A stretch of DNA of 64,000 nt from an uncultured Brevinematales bacterium (GTDB lineage: Bacteria > Spirochaetota > Brevinematia > DTOW01): assembly GCA_964475465.1 (NCBI GenBank), contig CAYYXA010000068.1, positions 23,811-87,810 of the forward strand, in the 5' to 3' direction. Position numbers and translations under genes: made by a program. The notes under the pieces were generated by a model. The model made no database searches, had not been told where the DNA came from, and saw only the letters and a list, made by a program, of their open reading frames with translations. Position 1 is the first letter of the stretch, and the number at the start of each line of letters is the position of its first letter. Positions 1 through 62,946 of this stretch are shown one piece after another.

Positions 1-672
1 TTGATACTCTCTCTCATCAAACCTCACATTTGGCTTACCCACACTGTACAAAATGTAAGATAGAGCATATATAACCTCAAAAGTAACTTTATTACCTATT
101 GTACTATATATGACATTTTGTATCTCTTCAACGGACCTAAATGGATATAGAATTACACCTTTAGGTGTAACAAATTTATTACTAACCAATATTCTTACAT
201 TGGTGATCTTCTGCAAATATTCGCTACTCAGAGCATAAGAATCAATAATAACTGTATTTAATAATATTTCCTCAATAAGATTAGTTAGTATCCTTTGGGG
301 AATTCTGGTAAGTATCAAGAAACCAATATCTTTCGTGAATCTAATTTCTTTGATAGAAGTACCAAATTCATTTATAAAACCTACAATTTCCGCAATCTCG
401 TCCTTAATGTTGGTAGCTCTAACGACAATGATAGGTAAATTTCTCTTAATACTGCTTATCTGATACTCGTTCATGAAACGAGTAGTTATTGGAGATATAA
501 CATTTGTAGAAGAAACTTTATTAACTTCTACATACCTTACTAAGTCGTCTAGTCTTTTTGAAATTAACAAATAATCCTCTATAACCAACGGCAAGGAAAG
601 AATAACCAAAATGAAGAATAATTTTTCGTATTTCCTAAGGCTTGCGACAAGCCCTTTACGGAGATAATCCAT
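1..672 (-). CDS. Hypothetical exported or membrane-anchored protein, partial (runs off the window start)
   Basis: Not in the ORF track. Hand translation from ATG at 672, 2 nt after the murC stop, gives MDYLRKGLVASLRKYEKLFFILVILSLPLVIED..., open to position 1, with an N-terminal hydrophobic segment. Confidence 0.8.
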   Translation of the reverse strand, partial: MDYLRKGLVASLRKYEKLFFILVILSLPLVIEDYLLISKRLDDLVRYVEVNKVSSTNVISPITTRFMNEYQISSIKRNLPIIVVRATNIKDEIAEIVGFINEFGTSIKEIRFTKDIGFLILTRIPQRILTNLIEEILLNTVIIDSYALSSEYLQKITNVRILVSNKFVTPKGVILYPFRSVEEIQNVIYSTIGNKVTFEVIYALSYILYSVGKPNVRFDEREYQ

Positions 673-674
673 AA

Positions 675-2051
675 CTACTTTTTAACCAACTCCATAACTT
701 TCTGAAAAACTTTATTTATATCCCCTGCCCCCAAAATCACCAAAACCGAATCATCCACCAACAACCCAGATACCAAATCAAATGCTTCTTCCTTAGTTTT
801 AACAAAGAAAACATCTGTTTCTTTTCTCCCCAATTTGATCAACTCATCAACTATAAACTTCGCTGAAAATCCTTCAATCGGCTCCTCCCTAGCACCATAT
901 ACTTCTGTAACGACTATTTTATCAGCAATGTTCAATGCTAAAGCAAAATCTCTATACAAAGCCCATGTTCTAGACCACAAATGAGGTTGGAATAAAGCTA
1001 TAACGTTTCTCCTACCTAAATTCTTAGCTGAAGTTAAGGTAGCTTTTATTTCAGAAGGATGATGCCCATAATCATCAATCACTGTAAACCTCTCATCCTC
1101 GAACTTGATCTCGAACCTCCTTTCAGCGTTCTTAAAATCCTTAAGACTTTGAGCAACAATCCTTGGATCAATTCCCAAGGATATAGCTACACCCATAGCA
1201 GCTAAAGAATTATAAACATTGTGTATTCCAGGAACATTTATTTTCATTCTAACCAAAAACGAACTGTTAAAAAACACATCAAACTCTGTTGAGAGTTTGT
1301 TAAGACTTATAGCATCAGCAACCAAGTTATTACCATCTCTTATGCCGTACGTAATACAACCAACGCGCCCCGACTTAATCATAGCTTCAAATGCCAAGGG
1401 ATCGTCCCCATTAATTATTACTCTACCTTCAGAATCAACATTATTTATATAAGTTGCAAAAGCATTCATTAGGTTATCCATGGTTCTGTAATACTCTGCA
1501 ACGTGATCATTATCAACGCTAGTCACAACACCTATGAAAGGATGAAAATGCAGAAAACTACCAAAAGCCTCACAAGCTTCATAAACGAAATACTTGCTAT
1601 TGCCTATCCTAGCATTACCACCGATGTACGGCAAATTTCCACCATTTGCTACAGTAGGATCAAATCCAGCATCCAAAAGAACTTTCGATACCATAGATGT
1701 AGTGGTAGTCTTGCCATGGGTTCCAGCAACACCTATGGAAACATACTCTTTTTCCATCTCTGCCAGAAGCTCAGCCCTCGATACTACTCTTTTACCAAGC
1801 CTTCGTGCCTTGGAAAGCTCAGGATTATCATCATTCACAGCATTCGTATAAACAACCACATCAACATCATCTTCTAAGTTCTCCTCCCTGTGGCCGACAA
1901 AAGTCCTTATACCCAACCTCTCAAGCTCTCTAAGCTTGTCACTATCCTGTTTGTCAGAACCCAACACTTCATAGCCCTTACTCCTCAAGATCATTGCAAG
2001 TGCACTCATCCCAATACCACCTATACCAACAAAGAAATACTTCTTAGCCAT
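675..2051 (-). CDS. murC: UDP-N-acetylmuramate--L-alanine ligase
   Basis: GIGGIGMSALA N-terminal motif, VAGTHGKTTTTSM P-loop, YEACE, DDYGHHPSEI and LFQPH are all MurC hallmarks. Confidence 0.97.
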   Translation of the reverse strand: MAKKYFFVGIGGIGMSALAMILRSKGYEVLGSDKQDSDKLRELERLGIRTFVGHREENLEDDVDVVVYTNAVNDDNPELSKARRLGKRVVSRAELLAEMEKEYVSIGVAGTHGKTTTTSMVSKVLLDAGFDPTVANGGNLPYIGGNARIGNSKYFVYEACEAFGSFLHFHPFIGVVTSVDNDHVAEYYRTMDNLMNAFATYINNVDSEGRVIINGDDPLAFEAMIKSGRVGCITYGIRDGNNLVADAISLNKLSTEFDVFFNSSFLVRMKINVPGIHNVYNSLAAMGVAISLGIDPRIVAQSLKDFKNAERRFEIKFEDERFTVIDDYGHHPSEIKATLTSAKNLGRRNVIALFQPHLWSRTWALYRDFALALNIADKIVVTEVYGAREEPIEGFSAKFIVDELIKLGRKETDVFFVKTKEEAFDLVSGLLVDDSVLVILGAGDINKVFQKVMELVKK

Positions 2052-2408
2052 TATACCACCTCTTAAGATTTTCCCAAAAAATTATCGTAAAATTCTACTC
2101 CTCTGAAAAGTAATTCTAACAGATTACACCAACCAAAAACAATATCAAATTCAATAATACCCAAAGGTAAAAATCTACTCACAAAACGAGACATAAATAG
2201 CGTTACTCAGCACAAGGAACCATTCATCACATCCAAAATATTATGATTAGGAATACCTCTCCTAATATCCTGTAAAACACCAAGGCACCTTTTTTATAAC
2301 GTCAGAATTATGATGACTGCAACTCAATTTTAACAACGCAAAGTAAAAAACGATACTTTATTAAGTACAAAAAGAGTTTTTATAATTATTTCTAAGAAGA
2401 GGTAAAGG

Positions 2409-7200: not shown

Positions 7201-7206
7201 AATTAC

Positions 7207-18990: not shown

Positions 18991-20184
18991 ATGACAAAAA
19001 AAGTATTCTTTAAAAAAGATAGTGTATCAATAATATTTAACGAAAACAGCGAAAACATATACTTCTCAGTATTTGACTACGAATTTAGGTTGATAACTTC
19101 GTTCAAAAATCCAAATCTTTATAGAAGAGGTTTCGACAATAGAGTTATACTGGGGAATATCTTTTCTAATGAAGCAATATTCCTACAAGAAAAAGAAGCC
19201 AATAAGGTACTGAGTAAAATCTACGAAGATTCAATAGAAGTTTTTTCTTCTAAAAACTTCCAGGTAGAAATGAAAGCCCAAACCGATGAAATAATTGACT
19301 ACTTTATTGAAAAAGCTCAAAACACAACCTTTGAGAATGTTATCTCAGATTCCCAAAACTTCAAAAAACTCTATAAACCCGTTAGTATAGTACCGCCAGA
19401 TCAATACTTAGCATTGTACATTCCAATAACCGAAGGATGCTCTTACAACAAATGTAGCTTTTGCAACCTATACAAAGACAGAACTTTCAGAATAAAAAAA
19501 CCTGAAGAAATCAATAACTTCTTGGACGATATAACAAGCTACTTCGGTAAAAGTTTGCTTACCCGAAAAGGTATATTCTTAGGTGAGGGTAATGTATTCG
19601 TTGAAAAAACAAACGACATAATCAGTGCCGTAAGAATCATAAAAAACAAACTTAGTCAGAACGACTACATAACATTTGAACTTGGAAACTCATTTTCTGG
19701 CTTCATGGACACATTCCACACCAAAAAAGAACTAGATGAACTAATACAACTAAAAAACGAAGGTATAAACAAAATTTTCATAGGGCTGGAAAGTGGCAAC
19801 GAAGAAATACTAGATAAGCTTCTTCAAAAACCTTTAAATACCTCTAATTTAATCACAACAGTAAACAACATAAAAAAAGCCGGAATAAATGTAGGAATTA
19901 CAGTATTAGTTGGAGTAGGCGGTAGGGAACTAGAAAAAAAACATATCGAAGACACAATACAAACACTTCTTGAACTAAGGCTAAATGAGAACGACATAAT
20001 ATACTTATCACCAATAGTAGAGTACCCAAATCTACCATATTCAACATTAATTAGCAAATTCGGTTTAACTAGGCTAAATAACGAGGAGATAAATGAACAA
20101 ATAAGAACATTCAAAGAATCTCTTTCACCAAGATTCCCAAAAACAAAAATAAGTATTTACAGAGTAGACAAGTTTGTATATTAG
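18991..20184 (+). CDS. Radical SAM protein with N-terminal extension, substrate unknown
   Basis: CxxxCxxC motif GCSYNKCSFCNLY, FLGEGN and IGLESG. Confidence 0.88.
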   Translation: MTKKVFFKKDSVSIIFNENSENIYFSVFDYEFRLITSFKNPNLYRRGFDNRVILGNIFSNEAIFLQEKEANKVLSKIYEDSIEVFSSKNFQVEMKAQTDEIIDYFIEKAQNTTFENVISDSQNFKKLYKPVSIVPPDQYLALYIPITEGCSYNKCSFCNLYKDRTFRIKKPEEINNFLDDITSYFGKSLLTRKGIFLGEGNVFVEKTNDIISAVRIIKNKLSQNDYITFELGNSFSGFMDTFHTKKELDELIQLKNEGINKIFIGLESGNEEILDKLLQKPLNTSNLITTVNNIKKAGINVGITVLVGVGGRELEKKHIEDTIQTLLELRLNENDIIYLSPIVEYPNLPYSTLISKFGLTRLNNEEINEQIRTFKESLSPRFPKTKISIYRVDKFVY

Positions 20185-23118: not shown

Positions 23119-24447
23119 ATGACCAGAAAATTCACAAGAATCCTGATAATGATTACTCTAGCATCCGCGTTAAGCGGATGTGATTTTTACTCCCTCTACT
23201 TTCTAAAGAAAACACTTGACAACGACTTCAGCTTCATCGAAAAAACTAAAAACAAATACAAACTAAAAGGTGAAAGCTATTACGACATACCTGTATCTGA
23301 AGAAGAAAAAATAACTCCAGAATTCATAGAAGACAAAATCTCATTACTAGAAACCGAAAAAGACCTATTTCCGCTTAACCAGGAAAAAGTCTCTGAAGTA
23401 TCAAACATGTTTGTTTCAAAAGGAGACAAAATAAATATCTCGCTACCTACTCATACCCAAGGCACATGGATTATAAAAAAATACCCCATCAAAGTTGCTG
23501 AACTAATACCCAATAAAAAACAAGTAAACACATTTTCTTTCTCCATAAACTCAACAGGTGAAGATAATGCAATCTTCCAATTGATAGACAAAAAAGGAAA
23601 CATCATATCAACAATTAATTACAGAATAATTTCTTCTCAAGGCTCAACCAAAGTAGCCACTCCAACCAAAAGAGAAAACTCTCTAAAGATAAGTTCACCT
23701 TCATCAATGGGTAACTCAACCACTAACCAAAATCTCAGTTCACAAACAAACAATTTTGATGTAGTAGATGAAGAGAGAAGTGCTCAAATTACAGAACCTA
23801 TACCACCATCAACACCAGGAAAACTCGATATAAAATCCTTAGTGGGCGACGAGAGAAGATTCTTCGAAAACATTGACAACATAGCTAAGAAGTACGGTTA
23901 CTACAGAGCACTAAAAGAAATTGAAAGTTTAGAAACAAACGTTTCTGAATCAGACCTACCAAAGCTGAAGCTGAAAAAAATAGAATACCTCGAAAAACTC
24001 GGCAAGTATACAGATGCACTGAAAGAAGCAGAATCAATAAGCCTGAAAGAACCTGTTGGTAAACTGTACGTTGGTATATTTCTAGGAACCATGGGTAAAA
24101 ATGAACTTTCAGAGAAAAATATAAAAGAAGCTCTAAACTCTATAACAACACCTCAGGAAATAAAAAGTGCACTGGAAAAAGTTCTAAACTTCTACCTTTC
24201 AAGTGAAGAATTACCAACCAAGGAAATGGTGAATCTCTTACTCCAAAGGAATGAACTCATCCAAAAAGATTTTAAAAAAGACTATTTACTTAACTTGATT
24301 AGCATAGGTAACTTATACGAAAGAGTTGGAGAATTCTACAAGGCAAAATCTTTGTATAATTTCGTTCTAAATAGTGAAGATGAAGAAGCCAAAAGACTAG
24401 CAGAAACAAACATAAGCAAACTCAACAAAATTTTGGACTATAAGTGA
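23119..24447 (+). CDS. Lipoprotein with Ser/Thr/Asn-rich linker and C-terminal TPR-like helices
   Basis: Lipobox LSGC at residue 21, a low-complexity linker and TPR-like segments (LYVGIFLGTMG, IGNLYERVGEFYKAKSLY). Confidence 0.75.
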   Translation: MTRKFTRILIMITLASALSGCDFYSLYFLKKTLDNDFSFIEKTKNKYKLKGESYYDIPVSEEEKITPEFIEDKISLLETEKDLFPLNQEKVSEVSNMFVSKGDKINISLPTHTQGTWIIKKYPIKVAELIPNKKQVNTFSFSINSTGEDNAIFQLIDKKGNIISTINYRIISSQGSTKVATPTKRENSLKISSPSSMGNSTTNQNLSSQTNNFDVVDEERSAQITEPIPPSTPGKLDIKSLVGDERRFFENIDNIAKKYGYYRALKEIESLETNVSESDLPKLKLKKIEYLEKLGKYTDALKEAESISLKEPVGKLYVGIFLGTMGKNELSEKNIKEALNSITTPQEIKSALEKVLNFYLSSEELPTKEMVNLLLQRNELIQKDFKKDYLLNLISIGNLYERVGEFYKAKSLYNFVLNSEDEEAKRLAETNISKLNKILDYK

Positions 24448-28137: not shown

Positions 28138-28138
28138 C

Positions 28139-28483: not shown

Positions 28484-28577
28484 ACGGTTTCCTCCTACAA
28501 CCAATATTTTATAATAACGGAAAACTAGAAACAATATTTTAAAGAAAAGGCTAATAGAAAAGCTTGAACTAAAAACT

Positions 28578-28604: not shown

Positions 28605-28623
28605 TATTGTCAAGAGGTGTCTT

Positions 28624-35929: not shown

Positions 35930-37366
35930 CTATCTGAAAAACCACTTAATAGCAAGTAAGAGAACAATAATTAGCATCAAGAGCCACCATTGAGAAATAT
36001 TCTCCTCCTTGATCACAATAGTAGGAACACTAAGCTTATAGTTAGTTTTTACCCAATTCGGCAAGTCCTCTAATGAAACTACCCTACCCTTCGGTATAAT
36101 TCCCCCCTCAAATGCACTCTCAGAAAGTACTATCTCATTAATTTCCTCACTGCCTTTACCTAAAACAAATTTAAAGGCATTTCTGTAAATGTCTTCAGAA
36201 AAAGAATAAACAACTCCCTCCTTAGCAAGTTGCTTATCAAATCTACTTATATTTCTCAACATGATAACCAAAAATTCAACACCTTTATACCGGAAATATA
36301 CCGAATACCCAGCACTATCAAAAGTCTCAACATCATCAAGTTCAATGATAGGATAGTGATACCTAAACGCCAAATCAACCGTTCCCTCATATCCCTTCAC
36401 AAGCTCAAAAATCTCCTTTTCGTTTGAGTAAAGAAAAGAAGAAGTAGAAATTCTAGCATTCTGCACAGCAGATACTCTAAATATTTTCCTTATGAAAGAT
36501 TCATCAGGAGAAACAACAAAAACTCTACCTCCCACCTCAACAATATCAACTATATCATCCAGCTTAATTTCAACGCCAGGATACCCAACAATTAACCCTT
36601 TAAATTTTCTGTCAAAATGGAAATTTGTAGATTTTGTCATCTTTATGAAGTACTCACACCTAAGTGAAAAATCCTTAATAACCTGGTTAAGTCTAGAAAA
36701 ATCAGCATTCAAATCAAACCACAAAACACCTATATCTGAGTATAATTTTGTTTTCAAAGCTATATTTGTATTAACCGATCGAACCAAAATCTCTTCAGGT
36801 AAAGACGTAGCAGGAATGAAATAATTAGTTGAAAGGTCTTTGGATCGGTACAAAATCTTATTACCTCCATATATCTCTATTGGATCTTTGGCCAATAGCT
36901 CAACAACTAGATAGTCAATCTGAGAGATATTAGTAAAGTATATTTTCCTAATCAAGTGATTTGTTTTTATAAATGTATAAACAGGTACAAAAACTGTATT
37001 TTCTGAGATTACATTCACCGGAATATCAAAAAGGAAATCTGAAACAATAATGTTAAGTCTATTTGTCTCAAAGCTTCTAAAATCCTCATCAGGGTTATTA
37101 ACAGGAGAACCGAAAAACCTTACCCTATCAGGATTAACTAGAGAAATAATTTCTTTAACATTTCGCAACTTATCTTTCATGCTTTGAGAATTGTCAATCC
37201 AAAGTACTGTTTCAATAGGCTCATTACTAACAATACTATACTTAAGTGTTACAGGAAGAGCTACGAGAAACATTAGCAAAACAACAACAGAATAGACATA
37301 TTCCCTTCTCAAGAGCAGAAAAATCAAAGCCAAAATTCCAACTACCAGTGCTACTAAAAACATCAT
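35930..37366 (-). CDS. Hypothetical membrane protein with short vWA-like MIDAS segment and C-terminal anchor
   Basis: Two N-terminal TM helices, LWIDNSQSM (DxSxS), IIVSD and a C-terminal TM helix (WWLLMLIIVLLLAIKWFFR). Confidence 0.7.
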   Translation of the reverse strand: MMFLVALVVGILALIFLLLRREYVYSVVVLLMFLVALPVTLKYSIVSNEPIETVLWIDNSQSMKDKLRNVKEIISLVNPDRVRFFGSPVNNPDEDFRSFETNRLNIIVSDFLFDIPVNVISENTVFVPVYTFIKTNHLIRKIYFTNISQIDYLVVELLAKDPIEIYGGNKILYRSKDLSTNYFIPATSLPEEILVRSVNTNIALKTKLYSDIGVLWFDLNADFSRLNQVIKDFSLRCEYFIKMTKSTNFHFDRKFKGLIVGYPGVEIKLDDIVDIVEVGGRVFVVSPDESFIRKIFRVSAVQNARISTSSFLYSNEKEIFELVKGYEGTVDLAFRYHYPIIELDDVETFDSAGYSVYFRYKGVEFLVIMLRNISRFDKQLAKEGVVYSFSEDIYRNAFKFVLGKGSEEINEIVLSESAFEGGIIPKGRVVSLEDLPNWVKTNYKLSVPTIVIKEENISQWWLLMLIIVLLLAIKWFFR

Positions 37367-43657: not shown

Positions 43658-44248
43658 ATGGAGCAGACTAAAGAGAGAATAATAAAATCAGCCATCAAGC
43701 TATTCGCTGATAAAGGTTTTCATGAAACTAAAGTTGAGGAAATAGCTACAGAAAGCGGTGTAGCAAAAGGAACGGTATATCTCTACTTTAGAAGCAAAGA
43801 AGAAATAATGATGTCTTGCTTTGAGTTTATATTCTCTAGAGCACTGAAAAATTACGAAATCCCTGACGAACTAAACTTCTACGATAGCATTAAGATGATT
43901 GTTGAAAATAATTTCAAATTTGTAGACGAAAACATGGACTTTTACAGAATGCTCCTCAAAGGGTTATATTCGACAAACAGAGATATAAAGAAGGAAAAGG
44001 TAATTTGTGAAAAAGAACTTTTTGAAATAGCTGTAGGCTCTATGGAAAAAATCATTCTCAAAGGTATCAACGAGGGTAAAATAAAAAAAGATGTCTCACT
44101 AAAGCATCTCGCTGTAACTTTCCTAAACACAATCATATCATCTCTTATAATGATCGTCAACTCAAGAATTAGAGGCTTCAAACTAGATGAAAATGAGTAC
44201 AAAGAAGAAATAATAAATTTCTTAACTGGAGGCATTTATGAAAAGTAA
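43658..44248 (+). CDS. TetR/AcrR family transcriptional regulator
   Basis: KERIIKSAIKLFADKGFHETKVEEIATESGVAKGTVYLYFRSKEE helix-turn-helix. Confidence 0.95.
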   Translation: MEQTKERIIKSAIKLFADKGFHETKVEEIATESGVAKGTVYLYFRSKEEIMMSCFEFIFSRALKNYEIPDELNFYDSIKMIVENNFKFVDENMDFYRMLLKGLYSTNRDIKKEKVICEKELFEIAVGSMEKIILKGINEGKIKKDVSLKHLAVTFLNTIISSLIMIVNSRIRGFKLDENEYKEEIINFLTGGIYEK

Positions 44249-45701
44249 GCTTATAGTTTTAATAATGTTAACTTTTATCATTAACGCTTACTCAATCAGT
44301 GAGGCAAACCAAAGAATTATAATAAGCAATGTTAACGATGCAATAAAAATAGGCCTCCAGAACAATAAAGATCTAAGAAAAAAGGCAATTGAGATAATGT
44401 CTGCAAATGCCAATTTAAAATCGAGTCTAGCAGATTTAATACTACCAAACGTTAGTGCCTCTCTGAGATTCTCGACCTTAGACCCTAAGACATTAGAAAA
44501 CTCCATATCTAAGGTTTCAAGCCTCAGGTTAGAAACAAACGTTATAATGGGATTCACCAACATATCATTTGCAACTGAAGAAAAAACAATCACCAACGCT
44601 TTTTGGGACAATTACTCGTTAGCTATATCAGCAAGCTATAGGATACCTTACTTATTACCTTTTGGCTTGGACATAGGATATAACTCCTATCTACTACAAT
44701 CAAAAAACGTTGAGTTAGCTAAACTACAATATCAAAAAGCACTAAACGATTACATATACAACGTAAAAATTGCCTATTATAACTATCTATTCGCAAAAGA
44801 GTTTGCCAAGGTAGCCGTCGAAGCAGACAAAAGATATCAAGAAAATGTTAAAATAGCAGAGGCAAACTATGCCTCTGGTATATTTTCAGATTTAGAACTT
44901 ATAAGAGCTAGAGTCCAGTTAATAAACAATCAACCGAATCTATACTCAGCACTCAACAATGTGGAAATTCAGAAATTCAATCTACTCACAACCTTGGGCA
45001 TCGAACTTTCAATGATATCCAATGTAGAGATACTAGGTAGCTTTGAGGAAATAAAAAACGAATTCCGTAATCTATCTATCGATCAAGAAGAGTTGAAGAA
45101 AAAGGTATTATCCAACAATCCCGATTTGAAAATTCTTTCAAAATTAGTAGAACTTTCAGGGACATCAAAAAATGTCTCCCTCTCTGCAAATAAACCTACT
45201 CTATCTGCTTTCTTCAACTTTAACTATGATTTCAAGAAAACAAACTCTATGGAAAACGAAAGGCACTGGGTAGATAGCTGGAATGCTGGAATACAAATAA
45301 CTATTCCTATTTCCGAGCTTCTACCGATATCAAAAAGCTACGCAAACATGGAAAATGCCGACTATTCTATAACTAAAGCACGCCTAGACTACGAGAACTT
45401 CCTAAATTTAACGATGAGCCAAATGAATCAGCTTATACTCAAGTTAGAAGAAAACAAAAAGAATATTCTAGCCCAGGAAGCCAACGTCGACCAAGCTAAA
45501 AGATCATTAGACATTGTAACTCAGAGATACTCTCTAGGTAGTGCTACTAGTGTTGATCTGCTTGATGCACAACTAGCATATCAACAAGCAGAAATAAACT
45601 ATCTGAGTTCATGGCTCTCTTACATTGGCAACTTCCTTCTGGCACAAAAACTATCAGGAGAACTAATAAATGAAGGAGGAATATATGAAAGGAAAAACTA
45701 A
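44238..45701 (+). CDS. TolC family outer-membrane efflux channel
   Basis: Signal peptide, AIKIGLQNN.DL, VKIAYYNY, G..S.LEL..A.VQL repeated as GSATSVDLLDAQLAY. Confidence 0.88.
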   Translation: MKSKLIVLIMLTFIINAYSISEANQRIIISNVNDAIKIGLQNNKDLRKKAIEIMSANANLKSSLADLILPNVSASLRFSTLDPKTLENSISKVSSLRLETNVIMGFTNISFATEEKTITNAFWDNYSLAISASYRIPYLLPFGLDIGYNSYLLQSKNVELAKLQYQKALNDYIYNVKIAYYNYLFAKEFAKVAVEADKRYQENVKIAEANYASGIFSDLELIRARVQLINNQPNLYSALNNVEIQKFNLLTTLGIELSMISNVEILGSFEEIKNEFRNLSIDQEELKKKVLSNNPDLKILSKLVELSGTSKNVSLSANKPTLSAFFNFNYDFKKTNSMENERHWVDSWNAGIQITIPISELLPISKSYANMENADYSITKARLDYENFLNLTMSQMNQLILKLEENKKNILAQEANVDQAKRSLDIVTQRYSLGSATSVDLLDAQLAYQQAEINYLSSWLSYIGNFLLAQKLSGELINEGGIYERKN

Positions 45702-46626
45702 AAAAGCAATAATAATTATAACTGCACTAATTGCAATACTCGTAATAGCAAGAATAGCAATAGTAGTAGTTTCTTCTAATAAAGACAATAAGAAAGATTT
45801 TTCCAAAATAAAAAATTTCGTTAACATAACTGTTGTAGGAACAAAAGTCAAAAAGGGAGATATACAAAAGTATATAACCCTCTCAGGTGATATAAAGGGT
45901 ATAAGCGAAGCACAAGTCTTTCCTGACGTGCCTGGCAAAGTAGCCAAAATATCTGTTGTCGAAGGACAGTATGTTAAGAAAAACGAACCTATTATGTATA
46001 TAGATAGATCACTAGTTGGCTACCAATACAATCTATCACCCGTTAGAGCACCTATAGACGGTAGAGTCGGCAGTATAAACGTTTCAGAAGGGCAATTCGT
46101 TTCTCAAACTACTCCCGTAGCCGTAGTCGTTGATAATAGAATAATGGAGATAATACTACTACTCCCAGAAAGTTATATAAGTCAGATAAAAAGAGGAGCT
46201 AAAACAATAGTCGAAGTTCCTTCCTTAGACAATGAGAAATTCATAGGATACGTATACTCATCGGATCTAGTCATAGACAGAGGCACTAGAACATTAAAGA
46301 TAAGAGTTAGAGTCAACAACCCTAGTAGTAAACTCATTTCAGGCATGTACGCAAATGTTAAAATACCTGTAGAAACCGAATATAATACCACATATGTACC
46401 TATAACGTCTATAAGGGAAATAGAAGGTAAAACGTTTGTATACATTTTATCAGAAACAAATATAAGCGACCAAAAACTCTATTATACATCGCTTAGAAGG
46501 GTATATACTGGTGTATCTGATGGTGAAAAAATAGCTGTAAAAGGCGTAAAAGAAGGTGAAATAGTTGTATCTCTAGGAGCCGAATACCTCAAAGATGAAA
46601 TAATAGTAAGAGCAATAATTCAATAG
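45685..46626 (+). CDS. Efflux periplasmic adaptor (membrane fusion protein)
   Basis: TM anchor, VPGKVAKISVVEGQYVKK, VRAPIDGRVG, TRTLKIRV and LISGMYANV; GGAGG SD before ATG 45685. Confidence 0.9.
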   Translation: MKGKTKKAIIIITALIAILVIARIAIVVVSSNKDNKKDFSKIKNFVNITVVGTKVKKGDIQKYITLSGDIKGISEAQVFPDVPGKVAKISVVEGQYVKKNEPIMYIDRSLVGYQYNLSPVRAPIDGRVGSINVSEGQFVSQTTPVAVVVDNRIMEIILLLPESYISQIKRGAKTIVEVPSLDNEKFIGYVYSSDLVIDRGTRTLKIRVRVNNPSSKLISGMYANVKIPVETEYNTTYVPITSIREIEGKTFVYILSETNISDQKLYYTSLRRVYTGVSDGEKIAVKGVKEGEIVVSLGAEYLKDEIIVRAIIQ

Positions 46627-46703: not shown

Positions 46704-47366
46704 TTGAAGAGGCTAGCACGAGTAAAGTATAATTCAGAGGTGTTAACAGTTCATCAGTATAGAAAAATTGGGAAAAAGAAAAAGAGGCTAAGAAGCTGGG
46801 TAGTGGTAGCACTGGCACTAATTTTTTCATCTCTTATTACTTTGGTAACATACGAAATCATAAGAAACATAGAAAGCAAAAAGGTTTACGAGGTATCCCT
46901 AAACAATATAGTAATAAAAGATAAAGAAATGGTTCTGAAAGTTAACTCACTAGAATATCCCTTATCAAACGATATAGAGAAACTCAGGGAATTAGCAAAA
47001 AAATTTGAAATCTCCTACTTCAGCATTTACCACAGCACAGAACTAATAACAAAAGCCTCACTCGTGAATCCCGAAGTGGTAATATTTAACGGCAAAGGTG
47101 AAAAAAACTTAGCCATGAACCTATCAGTAATACTGATCACTAATAACTTAAACATTATAAACTACGGAAATACCATAAAACCATCTAAAAAATCATTCAT
47201 ACTAATAAGAGCACCAATAAATGACGAATATACAAAAAAACTTAGTTCACTTATAGGAATAACCAACATAGTCGTATCGCTAAACTCCGATGTAATACCC
47301 CCAACAACAGCACCAATAATCATAGTCCTAGGTAAAGATTATAACACAACTTACATTTGGCATTAG
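46704..47366 (+). CDS. Membrane protein with LytR C-terminal domain
   Basis: Basic N-terminus and TM helix, then PEVVIFNGKGEKNLA...NYGN and IIIVLGKDY. No LCP catalytic domain is visible. Confidence 0.7.
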   Translation: MKRLARVKYNSEVLTVHQYRKIGKKKKRLRSWVVVALALIFSSLITLVTYEIIRNIESKKVYEVSLNNIVIKDKEMVLKVNSLEYPLSNDIEKLRELAKKFEISYFSIYHSTELITKASLVNPEVVIFNGKGEKNLAMNLSVILITNNLNIINYGNTIKPSKKSFILIRAPINDEYTKKLSSLIGITNIVVSLNSDVIPPTTAPIIIVLGKDYNTTYIWH

Positions 47367-51121: not shown

Positions 51122-53659
51122 ATGAGATTAGACAAATTTCTTTTGATGCTTGCCGTAGGGTTATTCGCCGTAGTAAGCTGTGTACCTCCTGAGGTAGAAA
51201 AAAAGGAAGCCAAGGAGGAAAAAAAAGAATACGTACCTCAAGTAGTCATCGCTTCAGCTTTAAACGAAACAAATATTAGCGTTATTCTAAAATTCACACC
51301 ACCAGAAGACTTTGAATTCAAACCTGACATGTTCTTAATAAGGTCTGAAGTAGACACAAACAAAGTCATAAAAGTTATAGACGTAAAGAGATCTAAGAAA
51401 AAAGAACTACTCCTTACTCTTGAAAAACCAATAGATATTGTAGATATATGGGCAATAACATCCTACAAAGATCCTACATTCAAAAACAAAAGGTTCATAA
51501 ACTACGAAAGACTTCTCTACAAGTTCTATTCGGACAAACCTTTAGGGCATAACATCGAAAATGGTAAGAATGTTTTTAGAGTCTTTTCACCTAGAGCAAC
51601 AAAAGTATGGCTCGTCATTGCTGATGATCCCATTACAATGAAAAATAAGGTTGAGTACGAAATGAATAGGGATGAAAACGGAGTTTGGGAAGTAGCTGTT
51701 GAAGGTAAACTTTGGGGAAAGTACTACGGCTATAGAGCTGATGGTCCTAAGCATTTCACAGAAGCATTCGACCCTGAGCTCATAGTCTTTGATCCATATT
51801 CAAAAGCAGTTGCAGTTGAAAATTCTTACAAGCAAAAGGGTATGACTGTTATCATTGATACCTCCAAATATAACTGGGAAGGTGATACATTTGTAGGATT
51901 AAAGGCCGAGGATGCAATAATATACGAATCGCACATAAGAGACTTTACAGCTCATCCTTCTTCTGGTGTTCCCGAAAACATAAGGGGAACATATAAGGGA
52001 TTCATATACAAGGGTAAGGATGTAATTGGAGGTATAAACTGGCTTAAGTATCTAGGCGTAAATGCCGTTGAGTTCTTACCTATACATGAATCTGGAACAT
52101 ACGAACCACCATTTGGTGAACAAGTTGAGCACGCAGGTGCTGAAAAAGGTGCTACAATCGTCAACACATGGAACGCACACAGTAGGAATCATTGGGGATA
52201 CATGACATCTTGCTTCTTCGCTCCCGAATCTTATTACTCTTCTGGTGATTTAACTCCCGGTAAATACAGCGGATTAGGAGGCACTCAAGTAAACGAGTTT
52301 AAAGATGTAGTCAAAGCACTACACAAAGAAAAAATAGCTGTACTTCTCGACGTTGTCTACAACCACGTCTCCCAATATGACTACAATCCCCTAAAGAGAC
52401 TTGGAAAGAAATATTACTTCTTCTTGAATGATTTCCACGGATACGATGCTAGAAGTGGTTGCGGCAATGACTTTGACACTGCTAAACCTATGGCTAGCAG
52501 ACTAGTTGTTGACAGTGTCAAGTACTGGATGATCGATTACCACATTGACGGATTTAGGTTTGACTTAGCTACAATAATTGACTGGAAAACACATGAGAAG
52601 ATCATAAAAGAAGCCAAGAAAATTAACCCTGATGTTATATTAATCGCCGAGCCTTGGGGTGGTGGTAGAGGTGAGCCAAGAGATGGTGGTGGCTACACTC
52701 TTGAAGGATTCTCCAAAAGAGGAATGGGAGCATGGAACGATAGAATAAGAAACTTCATAAGAGGTGGTGCTTCAGCTTCAGCTAACCCATCTTCTGGCCT
52801 TGTTTTTGGAAAGGGTAATAACGATGAAATGAAAAAATATGTTCTCGGTTTCCTAAAGAAGCACGGTGGAGATTTCTATGAGAAAGGGCATAACGTCAAT
52901 TACGCAGAATCACACGATAACGAAACACTAGGAGACTTCATAAGAATAGGTACAGGTTATTATAAGCATAACCAAATAATAACTAACCGAACTGAGTTCG
53001 TAAAACTAACTGAGAAGCAACTTGCTCAGAACAAAATTGCTGCTCTTTTCCTTTTCACAGTTCAAGGAGCTATAATGATACACCAAGGGCAAGAATTTGC
53101 AAGAAGCAAGATAGTTGATCCCAACAGCCAGTGGCTAAAAGATTTCAAAGTAGATGAAAAAGGTAGATGGTACAGAGAAGTTACACTACCAAATGGAAAA
53201 ACAAAAAAGGTCATGTGGCCAGGTGGCAAAGCAAAACCAAATACCATTGACCATGACAGCTACGAAAAAGACGACGACACCAATTGGATCAATTATAACG
53301 AAGCTCTAAAGTTAGAAACTAACAAAGAATTAGTAGAATACTACAGAGGACTCATAGCAATAAGAAAGAATTTCAACGCATTCAGGAAAACACCTACTGA
53401 GAGTATCACATTCATAAACGCTAACGAAAAAATTTCACCAGCTCTAGGCTGGATATTACCCGGAAATGTAAACGATGACGGGAAAGATATAATTGTCTTA
53501 ATAAACGGCAACCAAACCTCTCAAGCAACTTTCACATTGCCAGAAGGTGAATGGGAAGTAATAGCAAATGACAAATCAGCAGGCTTAAAAAGTTTGGGTA
53601 CAGTTTCAGGTACAGTGTCTCTCAATCCTATTAGTGGAATGATATTAGTCAAGAAATAA
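51122..53659 (+). CDS. Lipoprotein pullulanase type I (GH13 debranching enzyme)
   Basis: Lipobox FAVVSC; FRVFSPRATKV; HWGY; DVVYNH; DGFRFDL; IAEPW; YAESHDN. Confidence 0.9.
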   Translation: MRLDKFLLMLAVGLFAVVSCVPPEVEKKEAKEEKKEYVPQVVIASALNETNISVILKFTPPEDFEFKPDMFLIRSEVDTNKVIKVIDVKRSKKKELLLTLEKPIDIVDIWAITSYKDPTFKNKRFINYERLLYKFYSDKPLGHNIENGKNVFRVFSPRATKVWLVIADDPITMKNKVEYEMNRDENGVWEVAVEGKLWGKYYGYRADGPKHFTEAFDPELIVFDPYSKAVAVENSYKQKGMTVIIDTSKYNWEGDTFVGLKAEDAIIYESHIRDFTAHPSSGVPENIRGTYKGFIYKGKDVIGGINWLKYLGVNAVEFLPIHESGTYEPPFGEQVEHAGAEKGATIVNTWNAHSRNHWGYMTSCFFAPESYYSSGDLTPGKYSGLGGTQVNEFKDVVKALHKEKIAVLLDVVYNHVSQYDYNPLKRLGKKYYFFLNDFHGYDARSGCGNDFDTAKPMASRLVVDSVKYWMIDYHIDGFRFDLATIIDWKTHEKIIKEAKKINPDVILIAEPWGGGRGEPRDGGGYTLEGFSKRGMGAWNDRIRNFIRGGASASANPSSGLVFGKGNNDEMKKYVLGFLKKHGGDFYEKGHNVNYAESHDNETLGDFIRIGTGYYKHNQIITNRTEFVKLTEKQLAQNKIAALFLFTVQGAIMIHQGQEFARSKIVDPNSQWLKDFKVDEKGRWYREVTLPNGKTKKVMWPGGKAKPNTIDHDSYEKDDDTNWINYNEALKLETNKELVEYYRGLIAIRKNFNAFRKTPTESITFINANEKISPALGWILPGNVNDDGKDIIVLINGNQTSQATFTLPEGEWEVIANDKSAGLKSLGTVSGTVSLNPISGMILVKK

Positions 53660-53818: not shown

Positions 53819-55384
53819 ATGATAACTTTTAAGTGTATGAAAAGTTTAAAAAAATCAACAATTCTCCTTTCCCTGCTTTTAGTAGCCTTTCCTTTATATG
53901 CTCAAATAGGAATATCTTCAAAATACCTAGAAGTTATAATGGACAACGCAAGTGGGAGATTTTTTGTTAAAACGCTAATAGGTGATCCTGACAACCCTAA
54001 TGATGATAAAAAGATAATTCTTTTCGACAAAATTCCACCTACAAGTTACCCCACACTATTCGTCGATGGTGATGGATTTGAGGTAGGCACAGAAGATGGA
54101 TACTTTGAGAATAGACCTTCAATTTCAAAAAACAAATTAACATGGGCATGGAGACCTAACAAGTACAGTAAAATAAAACTAATCCAGATAGTAGAAATTG
54201 TTACGAATATATTCACATTAAGAGATGATATCCTAAGAATAACATTTCTAGTTGTTAACGAAGATATTAAAGAACACGATGTTAACATCAGATTCATTTT
54301 TGATACTGTCCTAGGTGAATCGGAAAAAGCTCCATTTTTCATTCCTCCTTATGGCAAGATAGACAAAGAAACAGTCTTCTACGAAAACAACATGCCCACA
54401 ATTTGGTACTCATTTGATAAAATCGATAAACCTAAAATAAAAACGATGGGAATCTTATCAGGGTTAGAAGACGTAACAACTCCATCAATGGTAGTATTTG
54501 CTAACTGGAGAAAACTTAGCAAAACAAAATGGGATTATATACCTGAAGTCGGTTCAAGCTTCAGTGAGGGAATATTCGGCGTAAAAGATACAGCAGTAGC
54601 AGTATACTTTAAAAAGACAAGGCTTAAACCCCAAGAGATAGCAATATACTCAACAATGTATGGACTTTTTGGCGATACCATAAAAAAGATAGGAAACGTT
54701 TCTTTTTCCCTCTCCGTTCCTGAAATCGTCAAAAGCTTCCCCATAACAGTTTCTCTAACTGTAGAAAACAAAAGTCCAATAAAACTAAAAGACATCATAG
54801 CTAAGCTAATAATAGATACTAACACATTTTATACATCAAACTACATATTTACTCTATCAAACCTACCTAACGAGGATTATGCCTCTTTTTCGTGGAACAT
54901 ATTTCCCATAGGACAAGTTCAAGACGGTGAATATATGGCAAAAGTGTCATTTGAAGCTCTAGCTCTTTCTACCAACTTGTATGAGGAAATAAGTAAAAAG
55001 TTCACTGTTAGCTCAAGAACCCAAGAACAGGTAAAAACAGAAAATTTACAAGAAATAGGAATAAAACAAACAAAAATCTCAACAAATTACCAACTAGCTG
55101 AAACAAATTTTATTTTCGTTACCAATGTAGTAATGATAACTAATACAGTCACAGTAACCAACGAACTTGAAGATTGGAGTTACAAGGTCGGAGTAAAAAA
55201 GATAAACACACTGCTGGAAATGTTAAACGAAGAACTAGATAACTTAATCACAACATACCATTTAGCCACCTCAGAAGAAAATAAAAAAATAATTCAAGAA
55301 AAAATCAACCTAATAAAAAAACAAATAGAAATCGAGAAATCAAAAATAAAAGCTAAAGAACAAAAAGTTACCAATACCAAATAG
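53819..55384 (+). CDS. Exported hypothetical protein: beta-rich N-domain, Ig-like domain, TN-repeat linker, C-terminal coiled coil
   Basis: AGGAG SD, signal peptide ending PLYA-Q, beta-rich body, linker STNYQLAETNFIFVTNVVMITNTVTVTN and a helical tail. Confidence 0.8.
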   Translation: MITFKCMKSLKKSTILLSLLLVAFPLYAQIGISSKYLEVIMDNASGRFFVKTLIGDPDNPNDDKKIILFDKIPPTSYPTLFVDGDGFEVGTEDGYFENRPSISKNKLTWAWRPNKYSKIKLIQIVEIVTNIFTLRDDILRITFLVVNEDIKEHDVNIRFIFDTVLGESEKAPFFIPPYGKIDKETVFYENNMPTIWYSFDKIDKPKIKTMGILSGLEDVTTPSMVVFANWRKLSKTKWDYIPEVGSSFSEGIFGVKDTAVAVYFKKTRLKPQEIAIYSTMYGLFGDTIKKIGNVSFSLSVPEIVKSFPITVSLTVENKSPIKLKDIIAKLIIDTNTFYTSNYIFTLSNLPNEDYASFSWNIFPIGQVQDGEYMAKVSFEALALSTNLYEEISKKFTVSSRTQEQVKTENLQEIGIKQTKISTNYQLAETNFIFVTNVVMITNTVTVTNELEDWSYKVGVKKINTLLEMLNEELDNLITTYHLATSEENKKIIQEKINLIKKQIEIEKSKIKAKEQKVTNTK

Positions 55385-57831: not shown

Positions 57832-57841
57832 TGAGGGCTAC

Positions 57842-59011
57842 TTAAGGGATTAAGTAGCCCTCTACCCTTTTTAATCTATCCGCCTCCTGAGAATTCAAGT
57901 GTATACCTCCATTTTTTACCTTCGTAAACCTATTAATTATACTTAAGGTTAGCAATTTTATTTCGTCAACATCAGATGAGGTATTGATCACCCAAAGTAA
58001 AACTGCACAAAGATTCTTTATTTTAGCATCGAAGTAGTTCTTAGTTAGAATGTTTTTCATTATTTCCTCTGCCTTTAGTAAATTACCTTCAAAAATTGAA
58101 ATGACAGCCTGCGAAAATTGCCTGAAAGGTTCATCCAGGTATATAACCATATTCTTAGCAGATTGTAAGTCTGATTTATTGAGAAATAAAACAAAAACAA
58201 CCCTAGCATTAACTCCTATGATCCTTAGTTCCCTTGCTTCCGCTAAAGCACCGTCTATATCCCCCAGCATAGCCAAAGATTTAATTCTAATAACTCTAGC
58301 ACTCATGGTATCAGCACTAGAAACCAATTCTAAAGCTTCACCAGGTCTACCCACATCAACCAAAGCATTTGCTACTATCTCTTTCTGAAACTCAACGAAA
58401 CTCAAATAATTCCTGTAGGTATAGTAAATAACTAAAATTTCTTCACTCATTTTGTAATAATCTAACTTTTGTAACAATGAATCAACAATATCGGAATACA
58501 CTTCTTTAAACTCGTTAGTCACCTTCACATTAGTAAGGAAAAACACAAGAGCATTGAGAGAGTTATTCAAAAGGCACATTCTCGAATAGTTAATCAATAC
58601 GTTCCTTGATATTTCTTTCGTAGCTATGTATCTTCCTACTTCACCAATTAGCTTCTCATCTTTGCCAATAGTTAAAATGAGCTGAGAAATATTTGGTGAA
58701 GGAATATCTAAAAACCTATAGATATCGTCAATTAGGCCGTCTTTACCAAGAGAGTAAGAAAGCTTAACCTTTTCAATTAGAATCGTTTCGCTATTAGTAA
58801 GCTTAGAAAGCTTATAAACTATATCGTAAAGTTCTTGGTACTTACCGTTAGAGTAAAATTCAGCAACTATACTATCAAATGTTCTCCTCCCACTTAAGAT
58901 ATCCTCAACATAATCAGAAAAACAAAAACCTGTAGCCAAAAGAATCATTAATACTGGGAAAACCAATCTCAAAACCATCAAGCAATATATTACTATCTTC
59001 AGTAGCCCCAA
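57842..59011 (-). CDS. Exported hypothetical helical-repeat (TPR-like) protein
   Basis: Hydrophobic N-terminal signal and TPR-like segments (NALVDVGRPGEALELV, SLAMLGDIDGALAEA). Confidence 0.7.
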   Translation of the reverse strand: MGLLKIVIYCLMVLRLVFPVLMILLATGFCFSDYVEDILSGRRTFDSIVAEFYSNGKYQELYDIVYKLSKLTNSETILIEKVKLSYSLGKDGLIDDIYRFLDIPSPNISQLILTIGKDEKLIGEVGRYIATKEISRNVLINYSRMCLLNNSLNALVFFLTNVKVTNEFKEVYSDIVDSLLQKLDYYKMSEEILVIYYTYRNYLSFVEFQKEIVANALVDVGRPGEALELVSSADTMSARVIRIKSLAMLGDIDGALAEARELRIIGVNARVVFVLFLNKSDLQSAKNMVIYLDEPFRQFSQAVISIFEGNLLKAEEIMKNILTKNYFDAKIKNLCAVLLWVINTSSDVDEIKLLTLSIINRFTKVKNGGIHLNSQEADRLKRVEGYLIP

Positions 59012-61228: not shown

Positions 61229-61250
61229 CTTTAAGTTTTATAATTCTACC

Positions 61251-61910
61251 ATGACCAAAAATGAGAAATTAAATCTTCTTTACGAGACACATATTTACTG
61301 TATAACTGCTGAGGAATACTCTTTAGGTAGAAGCAATATAGAAGTTGTCAAAGAAATGCTGGAAGCAGGCATAAAAGTAGTACAGTACCGTGAAAAGAAG
61401 AAGAAAGGGCTATATAGATACCAAGAGGCAAAAGAGATAAGGAAAATAACAAAAGATTACGGTGCAATACTTATAATAGATGACTATGTTGATCTAGCTC
61501 TTTTAGTGGAAGCAGATGGTGTACATCTGGGGCACGAGGATTATCCCGTTAGCGAAGTCAGGAAATTAGTAGGAGAAGAAATGATAATAGGTGGTTCGAC
61601 ACATTGGCCTCATCAAATGTTTGAAATGATAAACTCAGGTGTTGACTATATTGGTGCCGGACCAATATTTGAAACCCACACAAAGGAAGACGTAATTCCT
61701 CCAGTTGGACTTGAATACTTAGATTTTGCACTTAAAAATTCCACAGTTCCAGTAGTAGCCATCGGCGGCATAAAGGAACATAACCTAAGGGAAGTAATAA
61801 AGAGAGGAGCAAAATGTGCTTGCTTGGTTACAGAAATAGTAGGTGCTCCTGACATAAAAGCCAAAATAAAAAGGCTTATGGAAATATGGGAAGAAGAAAC
61901 TAGAACCTAA
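61251..61910 (+). CDS. thiE: Thiamine-phosphate synthase
   Basis: VVQYREK, ADGVHLG, IGGSTH, DYIGAGPIFETHTK and VAIGGI. Confidence 0.95.
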   Translation: MTKNEKLNLLYETHIYCITAEEYSLGRSNIEVVKEMLEAGIKVVQYREKKKKGLYRYQEAKEIRKITKDYGAILIIDDYVDLALLVEADGVHLGHEDYPVSEVRKLVGEEMIIGGSTHWPHQMFEMINSGVDYIGAGPIFETHTKEDVIPPVGLEYLDFALKNSTVPVVAIGGIKEHNLREVIKRGAKCACLVTEIVGAPDIKAKIKRLMEIWEEETRT

Positions 61911-62946
61911 CCTCTCCTGACAACACAACTTTATAAAACTGCTGAACCTGACTACTCCTAGTATTCATGAAAACAAACAAAGGCGTGATATTCAAGCTAA
62001 CATTATTATCAAGGATTCCGATTACCGGACCTGCCCAAGCCTCAACATGAAGCTGGGTTACCGCCCCCGTGAGATCGTAAACATATATAAGTCCCTCAGC
62101 CCCCACAAGCAATTTATTCAAAAACCTCAATACACCTGTAAGCCTAAGATCAATATCAGATATATCACTAGATTTCATAAGTCCATTATAAAACTGCGGC
62201 TTAAGCATAATAGAAAATATCTGTTCCAATCCCCAGCTATTGTCAAAAGACGACACAGAAACTCTTTCCTCACCCAAAGCATAAATATTAGCAAAAGTTA
62301 CATTGATGTTTGTTAATGGTACTCCGTCTACTCCGAGAACAAAAACAGCGTTTACAGTCCTGAAAAGAGTTCTAAGCATCAAGCCTCCCCTTAAGTTCAC
62401 TTCAGAAATTCCAAAAAATCCAGATAAAAGAACATCTCTGTATAAACCTAAAATCTCAAGGTCAGCAGAAATACCACCTTCATTTGTCAAAACTGGCCTA
62501 TACACATATAGGTTCACATTAAGTTTCCTATCGAAGAAAGAAAAATCCAAGTCAATGCCAGTACCAGATATCCACCTCCAACCCTTGAACGAAAATTCTC
62601 TAGATGGATGATAAATATACCCTTGATACGTTGCCTCATAACCTACATATTTCCTCACACCATACCAAAAGTAAACATCGAGGAAATCAAAAGGTCTTGT
62701 AAAAAATTCTACTTTCTCCAAGCTCATTTGAACATCTTGGAAGTTACTCGAAGATGAAGGTGAAAAAACTATACCAGCTCCATACTTGTTTCCCCCATAA
62801 ATCGATAAAAGTATCTCAGAAAAAAACATAGTATGAGTAGGATATATGAAAGAAACGCTCTTGAAATTGTCAATAACTACAATTTCGCCCCATGAAAAAG
62901 AAACAATTGAAACTAAAACAAAAAAGATCAAAAACACTTTCTTCAT
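61900..62946 (-). CDS. Exported beta-rich hypothetical protein, possible outer-membrane beta-barrel
   Basis: Signal peptide MKKVFLIF...SFS, alternating aromatic/hydrophobic strands and a C-terminal Phe (GEVRF); GGAGG SD before ATG 62946. Confidence 0.65.
   Translation of the reverse strand: MKKVFLIFFVLVSIVSFSWGEIVVIDNFKSVSFIYPTHTMFFSEILLSIYGGNKYGAGIVFSPSSSSNFQDVQMSLEKVEFFTRPFDFLDVYFWYGVRKYVGYEATYQGYIYHPSREFSFKGWRWISGTGIDLDFSFFDRKLNVNLYVYRPVLTNEGGISADLEILGLYRDVLLSGFFGISEVNLRGGLMLRTLFRTVNAVFVLGVDGVPLTNINVTFANIYALGEERVSVSSFDNSWGLEQIFSIMLKPQFYNGLMKSSDISDIDLRLTGVLRFLNKLLVGAEGLIYVYDLTGAVTQLHVEAWAGPVIGILDNNVSLNITPLFVFMNTRSSQVQQFYKVVLSGEVRF

Follow-up and report, generated by a model that had tools for sequence, protein, structure and literature searches.

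Why do the exported proteins encoded on one stretch of DNA from an uncultured Brevinematales bacterium carry the dipeptide threonine-asparagine (Thr-Asn, TN) more than twice as often as their amino acid composition predicts, and is there a factor that reads it? The stretch, referred to here as the window, is the whole 64-kb segment that was analyzed. The initial annotation of this DNA had proposed that a periplasmic modifier, possibly a glycosylation system, recognizes TN. Our data establish that TN is a short linear motif selected in the extracytoplasmic proteins of one lineage. The excess goes beyond composition, is confined to one compartment, is directional and was replicated, which are the generic properties of a compartment-specific short linear motif. 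The idea that the motif is a sequon is plausible but unproven.

The exported set consisted of 12 open reading frames (ORFs; Table 1), and a recount of this set gave exactly the totals counted by hand in the initial annotation, 51 TN (9.5 per 1000 residues) and 19 of the reverse dipeptide NT in 5,388 amino acids. The individual figures of that annotation were also reproduced: ClpC (25111-27660) has no TN in its 849 residues, seven of the 18 Thr in the ORF at 35930-37366 belong to TN, and exactly ten of the 51 sites fit T-N-x-S/T. The remaining 46 ORFs of the window (14,016 amino acids) contain 30 TN (2.1 per 1000), against 27.1 expected, and 28 NT.

Chance, composition or the post-hoc selection of a striking feature could in principle produce such numbers, and the exported proteins are indeed richer in both residues than the other window ORFs (Thr, 5.7 versus 4.1%; Asn, 6.7 versus 4.8%). 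When the expectation was derived from the composition of each protein, however, only 20.5 of the 51 TN were predicted for the 12 exported ORFs, which corresponds to an observed-to-expected ratio (o/e) of 2.49 (Poisson p = 1e-8). The maximum reached in 5,000 per-protein shuffles was 37, and the TN count exceeded its own expectation in all 12 ORFs. Among 329 testable dipeptides TN was the strongest outlier, with a runner-up at p = 7e-3, so that the excess is left standing after a look-elsewhere correction. A crude automatic classifier of signal peptides and transmembrane segments that was blind to TN content gave 42 TN versus 19.5 expected for the signal-peptide class and 27 versus 23.6 for the cytoplasmic class. 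Thus, after correction for composition, the TN ratio in the exported proteins was 2.0-2.5 and not close to 1, and TN and NT were unequal, with an o/e for NT of 0.7-1.0.

The signal was found to reside in the protein sequence. Each of the eight ACN-AAY codon pairs is represented, at frequencies that broadly follow codon usage, enrichment is limited to frame 0, and DNA repeats are not involved. The ACNAAY hexamer was counted 51 times in frame 0 of the exported genes against 20.7±4.2 expected, whereas it was at expectation in frames 1 and 2 and in the cytoplasmic genes, as was the reverse order AAYACN; no repeated DNA able to account for the TN excess was found in the window. A cause at the DNA level, whether a repeat, a codon pair or a mutational context, was ruled out by these results. 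Local low complexity rich in Thr and Asn was ruled out as well, because spaced T..N and N..T pairs with gaps of 1-6 residues had o/e values of 0.84-1.42, far under the 2.58 of adjacent TN; adjacent NT was at about 1.0.

Replication was sought in 441 kb of DNA from approximately ten Brevinematia genomes, the ORFs of which were clustered into families. Genome and metagenome scans were made with two families, the TolC-family outer-membrane channel and a secreted protein family referred to here as 53819 after the start of its gene in the window, and these yielded four to seven loci of the lineage each. The non-redundant signal-peptide families contained 114 TN versus 66.2 expected (1.72-fold), with 25 of 34 families above expectation, and the family counts fit one common ratio with no overdispersion (deviance 32.9 with 33 degrees of freedom). 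The cytoplasmic families of the same sample had 74 TN versus 69.9 expected. In the 32 exported families that are not represented in the window there were 75 TN versus 47.8 expected (o/e 1.57, p = 2e-4) at an o/e for NT of 0.97, and cytoplasmic families outside the window had an o/e for TN of 1.11. The exported ratio was higher than the cytoplasmic ratio in nine of ten genome groups, and in the lone exceptional group the 53819 homologue had been scored as cytoplasmic by the classification rule. At about 1.6-1.7, the independent estimate falls short of the window value (2.1-2.5), as would be anticipated for a finding picked for standing out; the smaller effect is what a winner's curse predicts, and to that extent it agrees with an artefact. 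Nevertheless, the excess was reproduced by automatic classification and in independent families and genomes, and the explanation by chance, composition or selection was tested and is rejected as extremely improbable.

The same pipeline was applied to 83 loci of other phyla (Clostridia, Planctomycetota, Nitrospirota, Treponema and others), where the o/e for TN was 0.68 in exported and 0.81 in cytoplasmic proteins, and that for NT in exported proteins was 1.52. As a separate observation, S-N is depleted in exported Brevinematia proteins (62 versus 89.8 expected, z=-3.1, in the non-redundant set of window and comparison loci).

The excess might come mainly from the linker of the 53819 family together with a handful of large, repeat-rich surface proteins. 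Members of the 53819 family alone carry 9-14 TN each, two proteins of about 1,000 residues (L083:1324-4239 and L098:17020-20016) account for 32 of the 75 TN in the replication set, and TN-rich linkers are present in homologues from other Spirochaetota. A concentration of this kind is difficult to reconcile with the finding that every exported window ORF and most signal-peptide families lie above expectation and that a single 1.72-fold ratio fits these families. Moreover, when the 53819 family was removed, the exported o/e was still 1.2-2.0 in all ten genome groups, compared with 0.64-1.30 for the cytoplasmic proteins. An effect of only a few families is therefore regarded as improbable.

TN sites are under purifying selection as a unit in the two deep families, 53819 and TolC. 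In 12 Brevinematia orthologues of the 53819 protein (51-81% identical to it in the alignment), eight of its nine TN were kept as TN in 10-12 sequences, and the Thr and Asn within TN were 92-93% conserved compared with 57-62% for other Thr, other Asn and the remaining residues. Counted site by site, this family gave 90 cases in which TN was retained, 17 in which both residues were changed and one in which a single residue was changed. The TolC alignment (21 Brevinematia orthologues at 58-91% identity) gave 76, 8 and 0 in the same classes; of the four TolC sites, three show no or almost no variation, and 14 of the 21 orthologues retain the remaining one. Gaps make up part of the class in which both residues are lost in the two families. 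Replacement of TN by S-N or T-D was never seen among the 166 conserved and 26 changed or deleted sites. In the family of the ORF at 35930, three of the seven TN are retained at 33% identity compared with none of the 11 other Thr. The other window families, for which only orthologues at least 80% identical were available, resolved no difference in TN conservation.

Structure models were used to place the TN sites of these two families. In the AlphaFold model of TolC (mean predicted local distance difference test score, pLDDT, 84) all four TN are predicted to lie no more than two residues from an extracellular strand end, a class that comprises 15% of the residues: two would be around the tip of a hairpin, a third at the top of strand 2, and the fourth where the second loop opens. 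No TN falls in the modelled helices, although these account for 68% of the protein and include 8 Thr and 34 Asn. The hairpin, at residues 90-119 (window 44505-44594; strands E90-103 and E106-119) and with a pLDDT of about 60, is an extra beta-hairpin inserted between barrel strands 1 and 2. All the Brevinematia orthologues have it, and it is missing from the more distant homologues in the alignment (23-33% identical), which thereby lack two of the TN sites. At the other two sites, the two closest outgroups have DT or QS, and PG or GG.

In the model of the 53819 protein (pLDDT 75), the TN of the structured part would be located between strands, immediately behind them or where they begin, and five more would fall in a linker (Table 1). 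Within this linker four of the five TN (T429-T447) are exactly six residues apart and T422 precedes them by seven, giving a spacing of 7-6-6-6, and the number of repeats differs among orthologues. The initial annotation had anticipated exposed loops rather than buried positions. This was borne out insofar as the TN placed in the two models appear at strand ends, in loops or in the low-confidence linker and not in cores, a result that refers to secondary structure only. A fold search with the model returned YidC P1 domain, GH94 N-domain and OpgD as the nearest folds to the beta domains; these are generic beta-supersandwich matches, and no functional lead emerged from that search.

The 53819 family is large and unannotated, with 2,512 cluster representatives matching its profile at E<=1e-3 and 605 at E<=1e-30. 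The 13 Brevinematia members have the 9-14 TN each mentioned above, while a homologue that is 29% identical has one (2.5 expected) and four Treponema or Salinispira homologues have 0-1. Among the best 149 profile matches the o/e for TN was 1.04 overall, but this average is split between many proteins with 0-1 TN and 14 with an o/e of at least 2.5. The TN-rich homologues include GC-rich 'Spirochaetota bacterium' proteins in which the beta domains are connected to the C-terminal helix by a Pro/Ala/Val-rich linker; TN is the sole constant element of this linker and recurs about every seven residues, e.g., ...VTNRPAKRTNAVVKLTNKPAQLTNRVPAVTNRPAGFTNRPLSVTN... Because TN stays fixed in a linker that drifts and is no hairpin, it looks more like a site that is read than an element of the fold. 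With regard to the genes nearby, the 53819 gene adjoins a GH13 enzyme gene in the window and in L091, and in L092 and L102, which belong to two distant relatives, the homologue of the 53819 gene lies two genes downstream of a family 2 glycosyltransferase (GT2) gene of generic type.

The residues that flank TN were analyzed using the non-redundant exported Brevinematia set, which has 106 TN sites. Directly after TN, I, T, V and Y are preferred and D, N, G and M avoided, and Pro occurs at none of the 106 sites. Before TN, I, V, S and T are found and Gly is excluded. Other Asn residues of the same exported proteins have none of these preferences, and a general context against deamidation of Asn in exported proteins was ruled out by the restriction of the I/V/T/Y preference to the Asn of TN. 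At the second position after the Asn, Ser was observed 18 times versus 9.4 expected and was preferred over Thr. The longer forms are in excess as well: TNx[ST] was observed 24 times versus 7.7 expected (3.1-fold), TN[IV]S 9 times versus 0.8 and TNIS 7 times versus 0.4. An acidic residue before TN is also in excess ([DE]TN, 15 versus 5.6, 2.7-fold; [DE]TNx[ST], 6 versus 0.8), being present at 12 of the 51 window sites, although most sites are without it. Cytoplasmic proteins showed none of these TN-based excesses. In its fuller form the motif is roughly [not G]-T-N-[I/V/T/Y], often E-T-N-I/V-S, and it is under both positive and purifying selection.

One possibility that follows from these positions is that T-N is simply the way in which this lineage prefers to end a beta-strand that runs into a turn or loop, with no factor reading it. 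The Asn would take the left-handed conformation that Gly takes elsewhere, the beta-branched Thr would close the strand, and selection would be for folding or stability in an external and probably hot milieu. The strand termini occupied by TN in both models, the beta-forming residues on either side of it, the exclusion of Gly before it, the PG, GG or KG of outgroup homologues at aligned positions and the high positional conservation are all in line with this explanation. Structural Asn/Gly turn motifs at the tips of beta-hairpins are universal and found in every compartment, and TN resembles them in its location at strand ends and in that the outgroups have turn-type residues (PG/GG and KG) at one site per family. 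TN differs from them in being limited to one lineage and to exported proteins and in tolerating no conservative substitution; neither Ser for Thr nor Asp or Gly for Asn was seen at any of the 166 conserved and 26 changed or deleted sites. Furthermore, the cytoplasmic proteins of the same genomes also have hairpins, yet their o/e for TN is 0.97-1.06, and exported beta-rich proteins of other phyla are in deficit (0.68). TN is also present in Pro/Ala-rich linkers, which cannot be hairpins, and the other Asn of exported proteins show no bias against deamidation-prone neighbours. A purely structural role is a serious candidate, but on balance we consider it doubtful.

How does the motif compare with known sequons? 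The bacterial N-glycosylation sequon of the Campylobacter-type oligosaccharyltransferase PglB is D/E-X-N-X-S/T, and the Asn on which the enzyme acts lie in exposed, flexible regions of proteins of the periplasm and outer membrane. The TN sub-motif E-T-N-I/V-S fits this sequon, and Pro never follows the Asn. In contrast to the PglB sequon, only about 20-23% of TN sites have Ser or Thr at +2, so that most fall outside N-X-S/T. When the residue at -1 is other than Thr, the o/e in exported proteins is 0.90 for N-x-S/T and 0.79 for D/E-x-N-x-S/T. Since most TN lack the +2 residue, N-x-S/T as such is not enriched and Ser is preferred over Thr at +2, the motif is unlike any known N-sequon, and we know of no precedent for a requirement for Thr at -1 of an N-glycosylation sequon. 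The canonical N-x-S/T, D/E-x-N-x-S/T and the Bacteroidota form D-S/T-Phi were each tried, and none was enriched on its own. In cytoplasmic Brevinematia proteins [DE]-x-N-x-[ST] is depleted (9 versus 19.0, z=-2.3).

The other relevant system is the general O-glycosylation of Bacteroidota, which modifies many extracytoplasmic proteins across that lineage at the motif D-(S/T)-(A/I/L/V/M/T) (PMC8550257). The likeness is that both motifs have a polar residue, an acceptor and then a methyl-bearing or hydrophobic residue (I, T, V or Y after TN) and that TN is restricted to exported proteins; C-terminal domains of the T9SS type (type IX secretion system) are present in Brevinematia proteins too. However, the Bacteroidota motif is at expectation in Brevinematia (exported, 37 versus 37.2, o/e 0.99; cytoplasmic, 49 versus 58.5). 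In addition, Ser does not substitute for Thr, in that S-N is depleted and no change from Thr to Ser was seen at conserved sites, and the invariant pair is T-N.

Recognition of TN might also be non-covalent, with Phi-T-N-Phi bound by a lineage-specific periplasmic chaperone, by a factor for sorting or assembly, or by a polymer of the envelope. The aromatic-x-aromatic motifs that mark outer-membrane proteins for SurA would be the model for this. Such binding agrees with the specificity of the excess for one compartment and one lineage, with the many copies of TN per protein in extended or hydrophobic contexts and with its regular spacing in the 53819-family linker of GC-rich relatives. On the other hand, chaperone motifs are usually degenerate, while TN is strict in its lack of S-N and in its all-or-none conservation, and no candidate binder was identified. 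We therefore judge this form of recognition to be unlikely.

The best explanation in our view is a lineage-specific extracytoplasmic reader, and covalent modification, i.e., glycosylation of the Asn or the Thr, is the likeliest kind of reader, although this preference is a tentative one. A reader is favoured because the motif belongs to one compartment, is strict and all-or-none, lies in linkers and at strand ends, is never followed by Pro and partly overlaps the N-sequon. The factor that we infer would read TN outside the cytoplasmic membrane, and the leading candidate would be a general protein-modification enzyme that glycosylates the Asn or Thr of TN and acts on flexible linkers and beta-strand ends, before or after folding; that the factor is a transferase, and that what it adds is a glycan, is conjecture. 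It is conceivable, but at present rather doubtful, that Brevinematia have a general extracytoplasmic modification system, hitherto unknown, for which T-N serves as the acceptor motif. In such a system, an Asn- or Thr-directed glycosyltransferase, for example, could depend mainly on the Thr at -1 (or, alternatively, on the Asn at +1) and not on the canonical Ser/Thr at +2, and proteins of the periplasm, outer membrane and surface would be marked at their linkers and hairpin tips. The periplasmic modifier of the initial annotation is partly supported: the directional excess in exported proteins on which it was based stood up, and TN is conserved as a unit in the lineage.

Several observations weigh against a modifying reader. 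About 77% of the TN sites are without Ser or Thr at +2 (only 24 of the 106 non-redundant sites have it), and the overall o/e of N-x-S/T is 1.02. Positional conservation as strong as that seen here is commoner among structural residues than among glycosylation sites, and the placement of TN in the models refers to secondary structure alone. At one site in each deep family the outgroups have a turn-type pair opposite TN, PG or GG opposite T335-N336 in the two closest TolC outgroups and KG opposite T129-N130 in the 53819 outgroup P0014. The excess is also weaker in more distant Brevinematales and in GC-rich Spirochaetota loci (signal-peptide proteins, 1.27, versus cytoplasmic, 0.76; p=0.09). With respect to machinery, the window contains no gene for an oligosaccharyltransferase or a GT-C enzyme, and neither the WWDxG motif of STT3/PglB nor a large GT-C-like ORF with multiple transmembrane segments was found in 307 kb of Brevinematia DNA, which represents partial genomes and is not a test of absence. 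The literature searched on Thr-Asn motifs and on Brevinema glycosylation had nothing relevant and reported no such motif.

The initial annotation had further suggested that rfbBD, uppP and a GT2-like gene in the window could supply lipid-linked donors. No support for this link was found: rmlB/rmlD and uppP are ordinary envelope genes, and the window has no GT2 gene. Its sole glycosyltransferase, at 41336-42472, resembles the GT28/GT4 enzymes that synthesize monogalactosyldiacylglycerol or diglucosyl-diacylglycerol and is of the cytoplasmic glycolipid-synthase type.

Table 1. Exported ORFs of the window and the TN-bearing segments within them, with TN counts observed and expected from composition.
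Feature	Coordinates	Strand	TN and remarks
N-terminally membrane-anchored protein (5' part of ORF), no family match	1..672	-	4 TN vs 0.75 expected
Predicted lipoprotein (lipobox LSGC), no family match	23119..24447	+	4 TN (ETNVS and ETNIS among them) vs 2.0 expected
Signal-anchored protein, no family match	29614..31044	+	3 TN vs 1.8 expected
Exported GH13 enzyme (CBM48 and alpha-amylase catalytic domain, pullulanase-like)	31129..33039	-	7 TN vs 4.0 expected
Membrane protein, DxSxS (metal ion-dependent adhesion site, MIDAS-like) motif	35930..37366	-	7 TN among 18 Thr vs 1.0 expected
TolC-family outer-membrane channel	44238..45701	+	4 TN vs 1.9 expected; none in helical periplasmic domain
TolC residues 100-120, in or next to the beta-hairpin insertion on the extracellular side	44535..44597	+	Three TN (ETNV, FTNIS, ITNA)
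TolC T335-N336, start of second extracellular loop	45240..45245	+	Invariant in 21 Brevinematia orthologues
HlyD-type membrane-fusion protein	45670..46626	+	1 TN (ETNIS) vs 0.8 expected
LytR_C-domain protein, N-terminal anchor	46704..47366	+	2 TN vs 1.1 expected
Pullulanase-like lipoprotein (CBM48, GH13, pulA all-beta)	51122..53659	+	5 TN vs 2.7 expected
Secreted protein of large unannotated family (beta-supersandwich domains, TN-repeat linker, long C-terminal helix)	53819..55384	+	9 TN vs 2.8 expected
TN-repeat linker, residues 422-448 of the 53819 protein	55082..55162	+	STNYQLAETNFIFVTNVVMITNTVTVTN; model pLDDT below 50
Signal-anchored protein, sub-threshold TPR_4 and POC1 matches only	57842..59011	-	3 TN vs 0.8 expected
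Secreted protein, no family match	61900..62958	-	2 TN vs 0.8 expected

Six of the exported window ORFs had no match in Pfam or NCBIfam. Among them, the ORF at 35930-37366 contains WIDNSQSM, which is similar to the MIDAS site of vWA domains, and with two N-terminal and one C-terminal transmembrane segments it resembles proteins of the BatA/BatB type; a word-indexed search of 5.8 billion clustered proteins returned three homologues. When the GH13 enzyme at 31129 was aligned to solved pullulanases, no consistent residue class was found opposite its TN sites. Outside the window, two exported Brevinematia proteins matched Por_Secre_tail, the C-terminal sorting domain of T9SS, with a score of 27 bits that equals the cut-off, one of 998 amino acids with 17 TN (L098 17020-20016, minus strand) and one S8 subtilase (L083 7183-9312, plus strand). 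This domain is usually regarded as restricted to Bacteroidota and the Fibrobacterota-Chlorobiota-Bacteroidota (FCB) group.

The host of the window, as judged from its proteins, is an uncultured member of the class Brevinematia, phylum Spirochaetota. Its aspartyl-tRNA synthetase (AspRS) is 94% identical to that of 'Spirochaetes bacterium RSWP19' and 79% identical to that of one metagenome-assembled genome, after which identity drops to 56%, and homologues of the lineage-specific proteins carry the labels Brevinematia or Brevinematales. In searches for sequence that would extend the contig, MurC was matched on a 2-kb contig only, and the product of the ORF at 61900 had no recorded counterpart. 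The approximately 58 genes are those of a diderm, flagellated bacterium. They encode MurC, alanine racemase, IlvD, an L-aspartate-oxidase-like flavoprotein, DAHP synthase, enzymes of the ArgB/ArgD type and FabG, together with AspRS, LysRS, ClpC, FliH, UppP, MazG, RmlD/RmlB, ThiE and LysA, a TetR-TolC-HlyD efflux unit and the two exported GH13/pullulanase enzymes. GC content is 35-36%. GC skew is negative in all 4-kb bins (-0.006 to -0.31) and AT skew is mostly positive, independent of gene orientation; because the cumulative GC skew is monotonic across 1-64000, neither an origin nor a terminus of replication lies inside.

Some further features of the window were noted. A ribosomal block S19-L22-S3-L16-L29 (16690-18631, minus strand) is isolated from the rest of the S10/spc operon and is directly followed by an ABC-transporter ATPase; the five ribosomal genes and the ATPase are also together in a relative at the 53% level (GCA_026415355.1, L091 6046-8729), which indicates that the operon break is conserved in the lineage. 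The protein encoded at 2409-3767 (plus strand), which has a hydrophobic segment at its N-terminus, is unusual in that it joins a long TPR array to a restriction-endonuclease-like domain of the Mrr_cat type (E=2e-13) at the C-terminus. Clustered just upstream of ClpC, at 27715-28956, are the anti-sigma-28 factor FlgM, an antagonist with a STAS domain and an anti-sigma kinase similar to SpoIIAB (HATPase_c_2). Two apparently cytoplasmic proteins of 567 and 309 amino acids (10553-12256 and 20181-21110, both on the minus strand) have no Pfam or NCBIfam match.

A two-residue motif that is direction-specific, restricted to one lineage and to exported proteins, and conserved as a unit had no counterpart in the literature searched. 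If TN is read by a modifying enzyme, sequence statistics alone would have revealed a new bacterial sequon, and the loops of TolC, the pullulanases and the family with the TN-repeat linker would provide ready predicted substrate sites. If instead its role is structural, TN would represent an unusual folding idiom that is specific to one lineage and one compartment.

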